From Acidimicrobiales bacterium (lineage in GTDB: Bacteria; Actinomycetota; Acidimicrobiia; Acidimicrobiales; DATDAH01): a DNA stretch of 64,000 nt. The position numbers were made by a program, and so were the translations under genes. The stretch spans positions 1,567-65,566 of the forward strand of contig JAYRFK010000110.1 of the NCBI GenBank assembly GCA_041908445.1. The letters are read 5' to 3'. Below the pieces are notes generated by a model, which saw nothing but the letters and a program-made list of their open reading frames with translations, did not search any database and was not told the DNA's origin. Positions 726-62,806 of this stretch are shown here, in pieces (position 1 is the stretch's first letter; every line of letters starts with the position of its first letter).

Positions 726-2480
726 ATGATTGCCGAAGGTCAACCCACCAACGGTGGCCGAGCGCTGATCCAGAGCCTCGAGATGGAGGGCGTCGAGGCC
801 ATCTTCGGCCTCCCCGGGGGCGCCATCCTCCCGGTGTACGACCCCATCATCGACTCGCCGATCCGCCACATCCTCGTGCGCCACGAGCAGGGCGCCGGCC
901 ACATGGCCGAGGGCTACGCCCACGCCACCGGCCGCCCCGGCGTGGCCATGGTGACGAGCGGCCCCGGCGCCACCAACATCGTCACCCCGTTGGCGGACGC
1001 CTACATGGACTCGGTGCCCATGGTCTGCATCACCGGCCAGGTGCCCCTCGCCGCCATCGGCAGCGACGCCTTCCAGGAGGCCGACATCACCGGCATCACC
1101 CAGTCGGTGACCAAGCACAACTTCCTCATCACGAGCGCCGCCGACATCCCCCGGACGATCCGCGAGGCGTTCCACATCGCCACCACGGGCCGCCCCGGCC
1201 CGGTGCTCGTCGACATCCCCAAGAACATCGTCGACCCCATGAACCCCGACTCGGCCATGGACTGGTACTGGCCCGACTCGGTCGACCTGCCCGGCTACAA
1301 GCCCACCACGCGGGGCCACCCGAAGATGGTGAAGCAGGCGGCGGAGCTGATCTGTGCCGCCGAGCGCCCGGTCATCTACGCCGGCGGCGGCATCCTCAAG
1401 GCCCGGGCCGCGGAGGCGCTGCTGGCGCTGGCCGAGCTCACCGACATCCCGGTGGTCACCACCCTGATGGCCCGGGGCGCGTTCCCCGACGACCACGAGC
1501 TGTGCCTCGGCATGCCGGGCATGCACGGCAACTACACCGCGGTCACCGCCATGCAGGAGTCCGACCTGCTCATCGCCCTCGGCAGCCGCTTCGACGACCG
1601 GGTCACCGGCAAGGTCCCCGACTTCGCCCCCCTGGCCAAGGTCATCCACGTCGACATCGACCCCGCCGAGCTGGGCAAGGTCCGCCGGCCCGACGTCCCG
1701 ATCGTGGGTGACTGCCGCCTCGTCATCGAGGAGCTCGTCCGCGCCGTCCAGGACCGCGGCGGCGCCGACGCCCAGCCCGATCGCACCGCCTGGCGCAGCC
1801 GCATCTCCGGCTGGCAGGAGAAGTACCCGCTCACCTACGAGCAGTCCGAGCCGGGCGAGGGCCTCAAGCCCCAGTTCGTGCTCGAGACGCTCCGCGACCA
1901 CACCCCCGACGACACCATCGTCGCCTCGGGCGTCGGCCAGCACCAGATGTGGGCCAGCCAGCACTGGAAGTTCAACCACCCGTACACGTGGGTGAACTCC
2001 GGTGGCCTCGGCACCATGGGCTTCTCGGTGCCCGCCGCCATCGGCGCCAAGGTGGGCCGCCCCGACCGCATGGTCTGGGCCGTCGACGGCGACGGCTGCT
2101 TCCAGATGACGGCGCAGGAGCTCGTCACCGCCGCGGCCGAGCGCATCCCGATCAAGGTGGCGATCCTGAACAACGCCTACCTGGGCATGGTGCGCCAGTG
2201 GCAGGAGATGTTCTACGAGGAGCGCTACTCCGAGGTCTACCTGTCGCCCGACCTGCCCGACTACAAGCTCTGGGCCGAGGCCATGGGCTGCGAGGGCATG
2301 CGGGTCGAGTCCCCCGAGGACGTCCTCCCCGCGATCGAGAAGGCCAACGAGATCGACGACCGCCCCGTGGTCATCGACTTCCGCACCGACCACCGCGAGA
2401 AGGTCTACCCGATGGTCCCCGCCGGCCAGTCGAACAGCAACATCGTGGTCGACCCCTCCCAGGGCGAGGGGGGCCACTGA
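726..2480 (+). CDS. ilvB: acetolactate synthase (AHAS) large catalytic subunit
   Basis: 584-aa ThDP-enzyme sequence (GGAILPVYD, HEQGAGHMAEGYA, GLGTMGFSVPAAIGA, ILNNAYLGMVRQWQ), followed by ilvN and ilvC. Confidence 0.95.
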   Translation: MIAEGQPTNGGRALIQSLEMEGVEAIFGLPGGAILPVYDPIIDSPIRHILVRHEQGAGHMAEGYAHATGRPGVAMVTSGPGATNIVTPLADAYMDSVPMVCITGQVPLAAIGSDAFQEADITGITQSVTKHNFLITSAADIPRTIREAFHIATTGRPGPVLVDIPKNIVDPMNPDSAMDWYWPDSVDLPGYKPTTRGHPKMVKQAAELICAAERPVIYAGGGILKARAAEALLALAELTDIPVVTTLMARGAFPDDHELCLGMPGMHGNYTAVTAMQESDLLIALGSRFDDRVTGKVPDFAPLAKVIHVDIDPAELGKVRRPDVPIVGDCRLVIEELVRAVQDRGGADAQPDRTAWRSRISGWQEKYPLTYEQSEPGEGLKPQFVLETLRDHTPDDTIVASGVGQHQMWASQHWKFNHPYTWVNSGGLGTMGFSVPAAIGAKVGRPDRMVWAVDGDGCFQMTAQELVTAAAERIPIKVAILNNAYLGMVRQWQEMFYEERYSEVYLSPDLPDYKLWAEAMGCEGMRVESPEDVLPAIEKANEIDDRPVVIDFRTDHREKVYPMVPAGQSNSNIVVDPSQGEGGH

Positions 2481-2592
2481 TGTTGGACACCGACCACCGC
2501 GAGAAGGCCACCCACCCCCGACTCATGGTCCCGGCGGGCCAGTCGAACTCGAACATCGTGGTCGACCCGTCGCAGGGCGAGGGGGGCCACTG

Positions 2593-2593
<1 letters not shown>
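2480..2593 (+). CDS. 37-codon micro-ORF duplicating the IlvB C-terminal tail (MLDTDHREKATHPRLMVPAGQSNSNIVVDPSQGEGGH)
   Basis: The ATG overlaps the ilvB stop (TGATG) and the stop overlaps the ilvN ATG (TGATG). The last 22 codons encode the same peptide as the IlvB tail, with 5 synonymous codon differences. Confidence 0.4.
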
Positions 2594-4189
<1,596 letters not shown>

Positions 4190-11076: not shown

Positions 11077-11088
11077 GCCCCAACCCCC

Positions 11089-11214
11089 CGTTCTGGGTAC
11101 ACGGTTGGGGTGCGGGTGACGCAGGCGTGTACCCAGAACGATCGGGTCTGCCGTTCTGGGTACACGGTTGGGGTGCGGGTGACGCAGGCGTGTACCCAGA
11201 ACGATCGGGGTTGC
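11089..11214. repeat. 2 x 63-bp tandem repeat; each unit is a 15-bp perfect-stem hairpin with a 22-nt loop
   Basis: CGTTCTGGGTACACG (11089-11103 and 11152-11166) pairs with CGTGTACCCAGAACG (11126-11140 and 11189-11203). The two units are near-identical by eye. Confidence 0.85.
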
Positions 11215-17457: not shown

Positions 17458-17934
17458 CTACTCGCCGGCGGGCGGTTCGGCGGCCTTCTTGGTCGCCTTC
17501 TTGGCGGCGCCGGGCTTGTCGGCCGCCTTCTTCGCCGGCGCCGCCTTCTTGGCGGGGGCCTTCTTCGCCGCGGCCTTCTTGGCCGGCGCCTTCTTCGCGG
17601 GGGCCTTCTTGGCGGCCGCCTTCTCGACCGACGCCTCGGCGTCCGCGGCCGCCTCGGCGGCAACGGCCTCGGCGTCCGCCTTCGCCGGTGCGGCCTGCTC
17701 GGTGGCGGCGATCTCGGCGGCCGCAGCTGCGTCCGTCGCCGCCTCCTTCGCCGCGGCGACGGCGTCGCCGGCGGGGGCCACCGGGGTGGACTCGGTGAGC
17801 GGCTGCCAGTCGTTGTAGGCGTTGCGGTCGACGACGGGAGCGGGGTGGCTGCGGCTCTGCAGCACCTTGACGACGACGCCGAGCACCGCCCCGACGATCG
17901 CCAGCTTCACGAGGACGCGCAGGAATCGGGCCAC
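17458..17934 (-). CDS. membrane-anchored protein with a Lys/Ala-rich (PAKKA-repeat) histone-H1/HupB-tail-like C-terminus
   Basis: N-terminal hydrophobic helix [18 protein letters not shown], then an Ala/Glu-rich linker, then [46 protein letters not shown]. Confidence 0.65.
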
Positions 17935-40319: not shown

Positions 40320-40391
40320 TCGGGGGTGGTGTAATCGGCAACACAACTGGTTCTGGTCCAGTTATTGGGGGTTCGAGTCCTCCCCCCCGAG
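40320..40391 (+). tRNA. tRNA-Gln (anticodon CTG)
   Basis: Hand-folded cloverleaf: acceptor TCGGGGG/CCCCCGA (U1-A72), D stem GTGT/ACAC, anticodon arm ACTGG-TTCTGGT-CCAGT, T arm GGGGG-TTCGAGT-CCTCC. CCA is not encoded. Confidence 0.9.
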
Positions 40392-40406
40392 CTTGACAAC
40401 TGATCT

Positions 40407-40479
40407 GGCCCCATCGTCTAGAGGCCTAGGACACCACCCTCTCAAGGTGGCGACACGGGTTCGAATCCCGTTGGGGCTG
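40407..40479 (+). tRNA. tRNA-Glu (anticodon CTC)
   Basis: Hand-folded: acceptor GGCCCCA/TGGGGCT, D arm GTCT-AGAGGCCTAGG-AC, anticodon arm CCACC-CTCTCAA-GGTGG, T arm ACGGG-TTCGAAT-CCCGT. It aligns with the canonical bacterial tRNA-Glu layout. Confidence 0.9.
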
Positions 40480-40485
40480 CAACAT

Positions 40486-40517
40486 GAACGGACCTGCGCT
40501 TCGGTGCGGGTCCGTTC
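40486..40517 (+). terminator. 14-bp hairpin with UUCG tetraloop directly after tRNA-Glu
   Basis: GAACGGACCTGCGC-TTCG-GTGCGGGTCCGTTC. Confidence 0.6.
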
Positions 40518-40548
40518 CGCGTCCCGCCGGAGCAGCGGCTTCGCCGCT

Positions 40549-40604
40549 GGACACCACGCCCGTCTGATGGTGGCGACACGGGTTCGAATCCCGTTGGGGC
40601 TGCA
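40549..40604 (+). repeat. tRNA-Glu-like partial copy 2 (3' part of tRNA-Glu with an 11-nt replacement of the anticodon loop)
   Basis: GGACACCAC-GCCCGTCTGAT-GGTGGCGACACGGGTTCGAATCCCGTTGGGGCTGCA. The 37 nt from GGTGG through the acceptor 3' strand to GCAA match the tRNA-Glu gene exactly. The upstream sequence does not form a good 5' acceptor strand. Confidence 0.8.
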
Positions 40605-40607
40605 ACT

Positions 40608-40637
40608 ACGAAGACCCTGCTTCGGCAGGGTCTTCGT
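40608..40637 (+). terminator. 13-bp perfect hairpin with UUCG tetraloop after tRNA-like copy 2
   Basis: ACGAAGACCCTGC-TTCG-GCAGGGTCTTCGT. Confidence 0.6.
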
Positions 40638-40674
40638 CGCGTCTGGGCCCGAGCCGTCGCCTGGCGGCGCCGGG

Positions 40675-40730
40675 GGACACCACGCTCGTCTGATGGTGGC
40701 GACACGGGTTCGAATCCCGTTGGGGCTGCA
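40675..40730 (+). repeat. tRNA-Glu-like partial copy 3
   Basis: GGACACCAC-GCTCGTCTGAT-GGTGGCGACACGGGTTCGAATCCCGTTGGGGCTGCA differs from copy 2 by one C/T. Upstream GGCCCGA could pair 6/7 with the 3' acceptor strand. Confidence 0.8.
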
Positions 40731-40733
40731 AGT

Positions 40734-40763
40734 GCGCTGACTTGCGGAAACGCAGGTCAGCGT
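40734..40763 (+). terminator. 13-bp hairpin with GAAA tetraloop after tRNA-like copy 3
   Basis: GCGCTGACTTGCG-GAAA-CGCAGGTCAGCGT. Confidence 0.6.
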
Positions 40764-40941
40764 CGCGTCCAGGGTCGGGTGGCGCACGTGTCGCTGGACC
40801 TGTCCGACGACGCCCGCCTCCGCGGACGGTCGACTGGCCGTAGCCCGGCCAGAACGCCAGGCGAGGACCAAGGGCGGCACGGCAGTGTCCCGCTCGAAGT
40901 CCCGCCGTGGAACCGCTCGCTCGATGCTGCCTCCCGCCGGA

Positions 40942-62029: not shown

Positions 62030-62806
62030 ATGAGCGACCCCTACGACCCGACCCGGGCGGCGCCGACGCCGCCCGGCGGCACGCCGCCCACGGGCGCGCC
62101 CGACCCCGCGGTGGGCACCGGTGGCGCGCCCACGGTGGCGGCCCCGTCGGTCTACGCCGAGCCGGCGCCCACGGCCTACGGCCCGGGTCCCGCGGGGCCG
62201 GGCGGCCCGGGCGGCCCCGGCGACCCGTGGGGCCCCGGTGGTCCCGGCGGCCCGGGGGGTGGCGACGACGGGGAGGACGACGAGCCCGACGACCGCTGGA
62301 AGATCGTGGCGCTGGTGGGCCTCGCCGTGGTCGTGCTGGCGCTCATCATCGGTGGCCTGATCGTCGGCTCGGGGGACGACGACGGGGGCGACACCACCAC
62401 CACGAGCTCGTCCAGCACGTCCACGTCGTCGACCTCCACGTCGTCCACGTCCACCACCAGCACGTCGACGACCACCACCTCGTCGACCACCACGACCACC
62501 GCGCCCACCACGACGACCGCGGCGGGCCCGCCGGGCGCGGCGTCCCCCGAGGCCGCGGCGGCGAGCCTGTTCAACGCCTGGACCGCCGGCGACGAGGCCA
62601 ACGCCGGCCAGTTCGCCGACCCCGGGGCGGTGCAGACGCTGTTCTCGCGCGACGGCGTGGGCAACGACCTCACCTTCGACGCCTGCACGGCGGCGGGCGG
62701 CGGGTTCGACTGCACCTACAGCAACGACACCGAGGTCGTGGTCTTCGAGGTCGACCCGGTGCCGTCCGGCTACCGGGTCACCGGCGTGTCCTTCCCGAAC
62801 GACTGA
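62030..62806 (+). CDS. single-pass membrane protein with Pro/Gly-rich N-terminus, Ser/Thr-rich linker and small Cys-containing C-terminal domain
   Basis: TM helix WKIVALVGLAVVVLALIIGGLIV, then a TTTTSSSSTSTSSTSTSSTSTTSTSTTTTSSTTTTT linker, then a C-terminal approx. 80-aa domain with 2 Cys. Confidence 0.55.
   Translation: MSDPYDPTRAAPTPPGGTPPTGAPDPAVGTGGAPTVAAPSVYAEPAPTAYGPGPAGPGGPGGPGDPWGPGGPGGPGGGDDGEDDEPDDRWKIVALVGLAVVVLALIIGGLIVGSGDDDGGDTTTTSSSSTSTSSTSTSSTSTTSTSTTTTSSTTTTTAPTTTTAAGPPGAASPEAAAASLFNAWTAGDEANAGQFADPGAVQTLFSRDGVGNDLTFDACTAAGGGFDCTYSNDTEVVVFEVDPVPSGYRVTGVSFPND

Follow-up and report, generated by a model that had tools for sequence, protein, structure and literature searches.

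An in-frame duplicate of the ilvB tail bridges ilvB and ilvN in a Microthrixaceae clade and may relay translational coupling between them

We analyzed a 64,000-nt stretch of DNA (hereafter, the window) from an Acidimicrobiales bacterium (GCA_041908445.1, contig JAYRFK010000110.1, positions 1,567-65,566 of the forward strand), in which ilvB and ilvN, the genes for the two subunits of acetohydroxyacid synthase (AHAS), are separated by a micro-ORF, an open reading frame (ORF) of 37 codons that repeats the end of ilvB. A first-pass annotation of the window had described the order ilvB, 37-codon ORF, ilvN with a TGATG overlap at both junctions, and both the sequence and its translation confirmed this arrangement. 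The features of the locus are listed below in window coordinates.

726-2480, plus strand: ilvB, AHAS catalytic subunit, 584 amino acids, stop codon TGA at 2478-2480 (ORF and translation).
2379-2482, plus strand: repeat unit 1, 104 nt, comprising the last 33 sense codons of ilvB (FRTDHREKVYPMVPAGQSNSNIVVDPSQGEGGH), the stop codon and the overlapping ATG (left edge placed from the copy-2 starts of relatives).
2412-2482, plus strand: core of copy 1, 71 nt, repeat family D1, gene-conversion partner (repeat search; concerted evolution).
2466-2473, plus strand: putative Shine-Dalgarno element GAGGGGGG, its 3' end 6 nt before the micro-ORF ATG (read from the sequence).
2478-2482, plus strand: junction 1, TGATG, ilvB stop over micro-ORF start (read from the sequence; kept in 8 of 8 carrier loci).
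2480-2593, plus strand: micro-ORF, 37 codons, product MLDTDHREKATHPRLMVPAGQSNSNIVVDPSQGEGGH, proposed relay ORF (translation; gene call in independent assemblies).
2483-2595, plus strand: repeat unit 2, 113 nt, that is, 104 nt plus 9 nt of in-frame insertions, with the second TGATG at its end (repeat search, alignment).
2508-2524, plus strand: diverged stretch of copy 2 with the in-frame insertions, reading KATHPRL instead of KVYP; limit of the conversion tract (alignment).
2525-2595, plus strand: core of copy 2, 71 nt, 90% identical to the core of copy 1 and its exchange partner (repeat search, family D1; concerted evolution).
2579-2586, plus strand: second putative Shine-Dalgarno element GAGGGGGG, its 3' end 6 nt before the ilvN ATG (read from the sequence).
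2591-2595, plus strand: junction 2, TGATG, micro-ORF stop over ilvN start (read from the sequence; kept in 8 of 8 carrier loci).
2593-3132, plus strand: ilvN, AHAS regulatory small subunit, 179 amino acids (translation; Pfam ACT_AHAS_ss and ALS_ss_C).
3161-4189, plus strand: ilvC, ketol-acid reductoisomerase, operon context (Pfam KARI_N and KARI_C; gene calls in the related locus L081).

IlvB matched the Pfam families TPP_enzyme_N, TPP_enzyme_M and TPP_enzyme_C (E values from 1e-41 to 1e-54), its translation ends in DFRTDHREKVYPMVPAGQSNSNIVVDPSQGEGGH, and its C-terminal region can be aligned with solved AHAS catalytic subunits through the motif VYPM(V/I)PAG. The part of the enzyme that matches the duplicated residues is, as judged from this alignment, the AHAS C-terminal arm, the segment that follows VYPM(V/I)PAG. 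The repeat itself consists of a 20-nt identical block (2384-2403, repeated at 2488-2507), a diverged part with a 9-nt length difference and then the 71-nt core, and the similarity of its two units is far above chance. Tandem Repeats Finder did not report it, the indel and the period falling under its threshold, while a general repeat search and alignment both detected it. In the 22-codon core of the window we counted seven nucleotide differences in five codons and no amino acid change, exactly as first described.

Comparison with related loci (designated by L numbers) refined the boundaries of the duplication. The second copy starts with ATG TTT CGC in L095 and with ATG TTC GAC in L230, which sets the left edge of the unit at TTC (window position 2379) and gives an original length of 104 nt, running from TTC to CAC TGA TG. 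Because the first base of the unit is also the first base of a codon, the second ATG and the tail copied with it shared one frame from the outset. The repeat drawn in the first-pass annotation is real, but its edges needed correction: ilvB ends at 2480, positions 2481-2482 belong only to the next ATG, and the unit is longer on its left side. Likewise, the length difference, which had been described as a single 9-nt indel, is indeed in frame but is seen in relatives to be the sum of two distinct insertions, one of 3 nt and one of 6 nt.

Assemblers can make errors at short tandem repeats, and an assembly or sequencing artefact that duplicates the end of ilvB would mimic this structure. We found the same locus in at least ten independent metagenome assemblies from varied samples, made with different assemblers (megahit, SPAdes and Logan). 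Contigs from ENA, JGI, NCBI and Logan encode exactly the same IlvN and IlvB, the 37-codon gene is present in every one that reaches the junction, and the junction DNA is essentially identical between them. Furthermore, diverged lineages show the structure too, each with its own substitutions. The agreement of independent assemblies refutes the artefact, a concern already voiced when the repeat was first noticed.

We assembled the clade around the window from a peptide search, from searches of species genomes and metagenomes with a DNA pattern of the tail, and from look-ups of graded IlvN clusters. The nearest species representatives among the matches listed belong to Acidimicrobiia, Microthrixaceae; wastewater is among the sample types, and all members of the clade are uncultured metagenome lineages. 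None of the 80 relatives that were fetched first has the duplication. An IlvB tail of the form KVYPMVP(A/S)GQSNSNIVVDP(S/T)QGEGG(H/R) is common to the whole genus-level clade, and besides the window lineage (also represented by L251) at least five further lineages of this one Microthrixaceae clade carry the micro-ORF with both overlaps intact: L154, L230 with L242, L093 with L094, L095, and L235. Homologues of the micro-ORF were recovered as P0001 and P0002 and in loci L154, L230, L235 and L242. In all eight carrier loci the ORF has 37 or 38 codons and overlaps the ilvB stop with its start codon and the ilvN start with its stop codon. The window element GAGGGGGG is replaced in relatives by the variants GAAGGGGG and GAGGGAGG, which are still purine-rich.

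The other members of the clade have a single copy (L219, L221, L233/L234, L236, L237-L240, L241, L243, L244/L245, L246 and L252). In a neighbour-joining tree of ilvN the clade has 100% bootstrap support, and the carriers fall into three subclades among single-copy genomes; the duplication has therefore not been retained in all descendant lineages. The single-copy locus L243 groups at 100% with the carriers L230 and L242, and both L243 and L252 lack the duplication despite an IlvN at least 98% identical to that of carriers, which shows that it is dispensable. L252, a single-copy megahit contig (k = 141), has a normal KVYP followed by the codons of the window's copy 2 (CCG GCG ... TCG AAC TCG ... 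CCG TCG), and such a tail is what a recombination deletion between the repeats would be expected to leave. Collapse of the repeat during assembly is an unlikely account of the single-copy relatives for the long contigs and for the megahit contigs with k = 127-141, and is possible for L243, a Logan contig of 922 nt. Absence or random divergence in close relatives had been named at the outset as evidence against a constrained element: absence from some close relatives is real (L243, L252), but the carriers contain no frame-breaking indel.

The part of the copy that lies upstream of the core carries a clear record of its history. All copies share insertions relative to ilvB, namely an extra Ala codon after K(V/A) and two to three codons after P, giving the pattern K-[A/V]-A-[H/Y]-P-xx. 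These shared derived insertions show that the duplication had a single old origin. In addition, there are lineage-specific gaps (L093 and L235, +3 at the 5' end; L095, -3 and +3). The copy has undergone at least five indel events, and every one of them has a length divisible by three, for which the chance in an unconstrained frame is about 0.001-0.004. This argues that the reading frame has been under selection. The start, the stop, the frame and both TGATG overlaps are kept in every carrier, and together with the in-frame indels they make it very probable that the micro-ORF is translated. Moreover, its start context is a copy of the one from which ilvN ancestrally restarted (the upstream 99 nt including GAGGGGGG, and TGATG), so that it would be translated about as efficiently as ilvN in single-copy genomes. 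The distribution suggests that the duplication was gained once and then cleanly lost several times, or else that homologous recombination spread it laterally to some extent.

To our knowledge such a copy has no counterpart elsewhere in the genomes: peptide, profile and DNA-pattern searches found no micro-ORF homologue away from the ilvB-ilvN locus. A pattern specific for copy 2 matched, among 185,579 species genomes, only the ilvB-ilvN loci L154 and L230 and three chance sites, and when 1.84 billion representative proteins were searched with a profile, the matches consisted of nothing but low-complexity noise and fragments.

We then scanned 77 other actinobacterial ilvB-ilvN junctions. At 67 of them the ilvN start lies on or beside the ilvB stop; that direct overlap is usual argues that coupling matters at this gene pair. 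Five others (L011, L018, L021, L049 and L072) have unrelated inserts that contain an ORF of 17-34 codons running from the ilvB stop to the ilvN start. These bridging ORFs (in junctions at 2284-2375 in L011 and 3860-3970 in L018, for example) start on or beside the ilvB stop and have an ATGA overlap with ilvN. The probability of a bridge, estimated from shuffled and length-varied inserts as a rough null (L072 was not simulated), is 0.01-0.28 per locus. Four junctions were flagged as unbridged with small gaps of 25-50 nt, which are probably start-codon ambiguities, and just one long spacer is unbridged (L003), where ilvN has its own AGGAG. The recurrence of bridging ORFs in unrelated inserts supports, by analogy, the principle of a relay between the two genes.

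Several other features came to light at these junctions. The insert of L018 contains a 13-nt inverted repeat with a REP-like resemblance. Two Mycolicibacterium/Mycobacterium loci (L054 at 3240-3350 and L063 at 3920-3990) have two to three tandem 33-nt repeats (beginning ATGAGCGCTTGCGCGAAGAAC) between ilvB and ilvN, which by eye appear as MSACAKN repeats in an ORF that bridges the genes; the logic is similar to that of mycobacterial interspersed repetitive units (MIRUs), with a unit shorter than in the classical ones. In L038 (about 3834-3978) the IlvB tail contains an internal in-frame duplication (beginning VDPSQRSPHVDPSQRSPE), which suggests that this tail is prone to slippage or duplication elsewhere as well. 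Two apparent lesions are likely sequencing errors: an ilvB stop that reads GGA for TGA near a contig end in L247 (about 50-60), and a frameshifted ilvB tail in L223 (about 3150-3240, minus strand).

These data bear on whether the micro-ORF is simply a neutral remnant, with no selected property, in which ilvN starts from its own Shine-Dalgarno element and an ORF that was born intact is refreshed by conversion. DNA of about 70% G+C has few stop codons, the reading frame in which the micro-ORF lies already extends hundreds of bases further upstream (ORF 1949-2593), the element GAGGGGGG before ilvN could support de novo initiation, and loss of the duplication is frequent and apparently harmless. 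However, a remnant of this kind does not readily account for at least five independent indels in the non-converted part that are all in frame, or for an ATG on the ilvB stop that is kept in all carriers. Nor does it sit easily with direct overlap as the rule at ilvB-ilvN junctions, or with bridging ORFs that recur in unrelated inserts of other lineages well above the shuffle expectation. We consider neutrality unlikely.

To interpret the synonymous-only differences in the core, we compared the two copies within and between genomes. Within a genome the cores differ by 0 nt in L235 and in L093 (a contig of 1.8x coverage), by 1 nt in L154, by 6 nt in L230, L242 and L094, by 7 nt in the window and by 11 nt in L095, while orthologous cores differ by 7.4-8.1 nt on average. 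The copies do not form separate copy-1 and copy-2 clades; the nearest neighbours of a copy-2 core are often copy-1 cores of other genomes. In L235 an Ala-to-Ser replacement and the AGC and GGA codons are found alike in both copies, and a codon that is GAC in other genomes is GAT in both copies of L093 and L094. These results demonstrate that the copies are in concerted evolution by gene conversion or recombination, and that the partner is an IlvB tail under purifying selection. Single-copy tails have a serine codon that is either AGC-type or TCG-type, and the seven differences in the window are, on the codon evidence, two old tail haplotypes lying side by side.

The codon states point in the same direction. 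Copy 2 has 14 synonymous and 3 nonsynonymous distinct states, compared to 23 and 3 in real ilvB tails (Fisher p = 0.67), and all 14 synonymous states are also present in real tails, a sharing for which chance partly accounts, since most third positions are C or G only. The states private to copy 2 are nonsynonymous: Pro to Arg in the conserved PMVPAG (L230, L242), Met to Thr (L095) and a polymorphic Ser to Pro (L085). The 5' third of the copy has little long-term protein conservation, and KVYPM, the most conserved motif of the AHAS tail, is disrupted in every copy. Since the core exchanges sequence with an IlvB tail under purifying selection, its synonymous-only pattern is no evidence for selection on a free peptide. 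It had been proposed from the window that the element looks more like a translated, constrained peptide than a decaying scar; the first half of this contrast holds in that frame, overlaps and in-frame indels show no random decay, whereas the argument for constraint on the peptide is confounded by conversion.

A functional product, in which purifying selection would maintain the AHAS C-terminal arm (VPAGQSNSNIVVDPSQGEGGH) as a separate peptide with an effect on the assembly or activity of IlvB or IlvN, nevertheless has points in its favor. The duplicated part corresponds to an arm that is mobile and has been implicated in dimer and thiamine diphosphate (ThDP) stabilisation, which makes a peptide role biologically conceivable. 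A 21-residue stretch of the core is identical at the protein level across carriers, the window copies differ only synonymously while retaining an AGC/TCG difference between serine codon families, and nonsynonymous differences are rare even in the most diverged pairs (11 nt in L095, 7 nt in the window). From this scarcity, some constraint at the peptide level may exist. A manual count among close carriers also gave an excess of third-position changes in the 5' part. But conversion with a selected partner, which we observe directly, produces the same pattern in the core. In addition, the changes private to copy 2 replace amino acids (the P-to-R change falling within PMVPAG), the KVYPM motif is lost throughout, the 5' third is not conserved at the protein level over the long term, the whole element has been lost repeatedly, even between genomes with an IlvN at least 98% identical, and no homologue was found beyond the ilvB-ilvN locus. 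Taken together, these points make a functional peptide rather improbable. A more specific form, in which double coupling would supply the arm in a fixed ratio with IlvB and IlvN and the arm would influence in trans how the catalytic site closes or the holoenzyme assembles, is more doubtful still. If it were true, selection on the peptide would operate alongside gene conversion and would account for the persistence, from the clade's origin onward, of a repeat that is easily deleted. We know of no free-standing AHAS C-terminal arm that has been described.

The junctions had also been proposed as sites of programmed -1 frameshifting, by which IlvB would be fused to the micro-ORF and the micro-ORF to IlvN. 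In the window the run G GGG GGC formally fits an X XXY YYZ heptamer at both junctions, and each downstream frame is -1 relative to the one upstream. The heptamer is not conserved, however, either in carriers or in single-copy members of the clade: it is broken in L235 (GGA GGC in both copies), in copy 1 of L230 (GAA GGG GGC), in L236 (GGA GGG) and in L237 (GGC GGG), and for this reason the fusion idea fails. The region 2440-2640 folds no more stably than shuffled sequence (z = 0.46) and so offers no stimulatory structure, heptamers made of G are poor shifters, and the Shine-Dalgarno element of the overlapping start explains the run of G. We regard frameshifting as very improbable.

Three other candidates were examined and rejected. 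For an RNA element at the junctions there was no Rfam match and no unusual fold (2440-2640). An antisense gene was considered for a 199-amino-acid ORF on the minus strand (2371-2970) that overlaps the micro-ORF together with the 5' end of ilvN; no Pfam family matched it, and, its third codon positions falling on those of the micro-ORF, we judge it a shadow ORF of the kind typical of high-G+C DNA. Finally, a leader peptide or attenuator does not fit an ORF that is intergenic, lacks any series of regulatory codons and has no terminator-like fold after it.

We therefore favor, with a probability of roughly 0.55, a reading in which an old duplication was tolerated and kept translatable as a relay for coupling, while its core was refreshed by gene conversion. 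A 104-nt tandem duplication of the ilvB 3' end, including the overlap of ilvB stop and ilvN start, arose in an ancestor of the genus-level Microthrixaceae clade and created a short ORF whose first codon overlaps the ilvB stop and whose last overlaps the ilvN start. Ribosomes that finish ilvB would re-initiate at the ATG at 2480, which has the same upstream context as the ancestral ilvN start, would translate the 37 codons and, on terminating at the second TGATG, would start again on ilvN. In this manner the micro-ORF would carry translational coupling over an insert that would otherwise break it, and selection would act on the continuity of the ORF (its start codon, frame and stop position) and not necessarily on the product. 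The 3' two-thirds are held identical in protein sequence to the IlvB tail by gene conversion or recombination with the real tail, the same repeats permit clean deletion to one copy, which has occurred repeatedly, and the 5' third escaped conversion after the in-frame insertions and drifts at the protein level.

Several observations weigh against this relay model. Even the most diverged core pairs (7 nt in the window, 11 nt in L095) differ almost entirely by synonymous changes, whereas a neutral second copy with conversion only within the genome predicts that more than half of the differences should be nonsynonymous. This scarcity needs patchy conversion, import of diverged alleles of the ilvB tail, or real selection at the peptide level. 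In the 5' part of the closest carriers, five of six changes fall at third codon positions (p of about 0.02, from a manual count of a very small sample), which hints at weak protein-level constraint there too. In addition, a long-lived tandem repeat that can be deleted cleanly might be expected to vanish unless it conferred a benefit, and both translation and coupling are inferred here from sequence.

The relay model agrees with what has been reported on coupled genes. Coupling by termination and reinitiation is nearly gone when stop and start are about 20 nt apart, the last 15 nt of the upstream gene are enough for coupling, and overlaps are enriched among pairs of genes for subunits of the same complex (PMC10666635). 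Short ORFs with no role other than ribosome delivery, and MIRU ORFs coupled at -4, are both covered in a recent review (PMC12548453). Like those mycobacterial ORFs (Supply et al. 1997; Shell et al. 2015; PMC12548453), the micro-ORF overlaps co-oriented genes at both ends, it represents an insertion that would leave translational coupling unbroken, and its product need not function. Unlike a MIRU, it is a local tandem duplication of the ilvB 3' end confined to ilvB-ilvN and not a dispersed or mobile repeat, and it evolves in concert with its parent gene. The canonical TGATG, the Shine-Dalgarno-like motif and the two subunits of one enzyme are also features of ATGA/TGATG coupling (Huber et al. 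2019, 2023), from which the locus differs in having two overlaps in series with a 37-codon relay and in that coupling is deduced from the sequence itself.

The exchange between the copies resembles that of other short tandem paralogues under gene conversion: paralogues are as similar as orthologues or more so, the same nonsynonymous change occurs twice, codons are mosaic, and single-copy derivatives with copy-2 codons occur. It departs from the usual case in that the partners are the tail of an essential-pathway enzyme and a 37-codon ORF, and in that the conversion tract is bounded by in-frame insertions. The duplicated residues themselves align with the segment after VYPM(V/I)PAG that forms the C-terminal arm in yeast and plant AHAS structures.

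Elsewhere in the window we noted further repeats. At 40320-40780, tRNA-Gln(CTG) and tRNA-Glu(CTC) are followed by two extra copies of the tRNA-Glu 3' half (GGCGACACGGGTTCGAATCCCGTTGGGGCTGCAAC), with a hairpin after each; ARAGORN did not call these copies, which may represent att sites left behind by integrated elements, or else tRNA copies in decay. At 11088-11209 lies a perfect tandem duplication of 63 nt (1.9 copies) with a long palindrome in each unit (CCGTTCTGGGTACACG...CGTGTACCCAGAACG). Dense repeats of 15, 30 and 45 nt of the GCCTTCTTCGCCGG type lie at 17480-17745, and their minus strand would specify repeats rich in Ala and Lys that resemble the tails of histone-like proteins of actinobacteria. 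Several overlapping arrays of 9-39-nt repeats (CCGGGCGGC, CCACCACGTCCACGT) at 62198-62521 are probably a low-complexity coding region.

If the relay model holds, this locus is a natural case in which a coupled two-subunit operon absorbed an insert at its stop/start overlap, and in which the insert persists while it remains a translatable bridge. Should the functional-peptide reading prove correct instead, the micro-ORF would encode the first free-standing AHAS tail peptide. The concerted evolution of the copies is also a caution for genome scans: a difference from the parent gene that is only synonymous is no proof of a constrained peptide if the copies exchange sequence. Finally, the unrelated bridging ORFs at ilvB-ilvN in other Actinomycetota suggest that the persistence of inserts as translatable bridges may be a general rule for operons.

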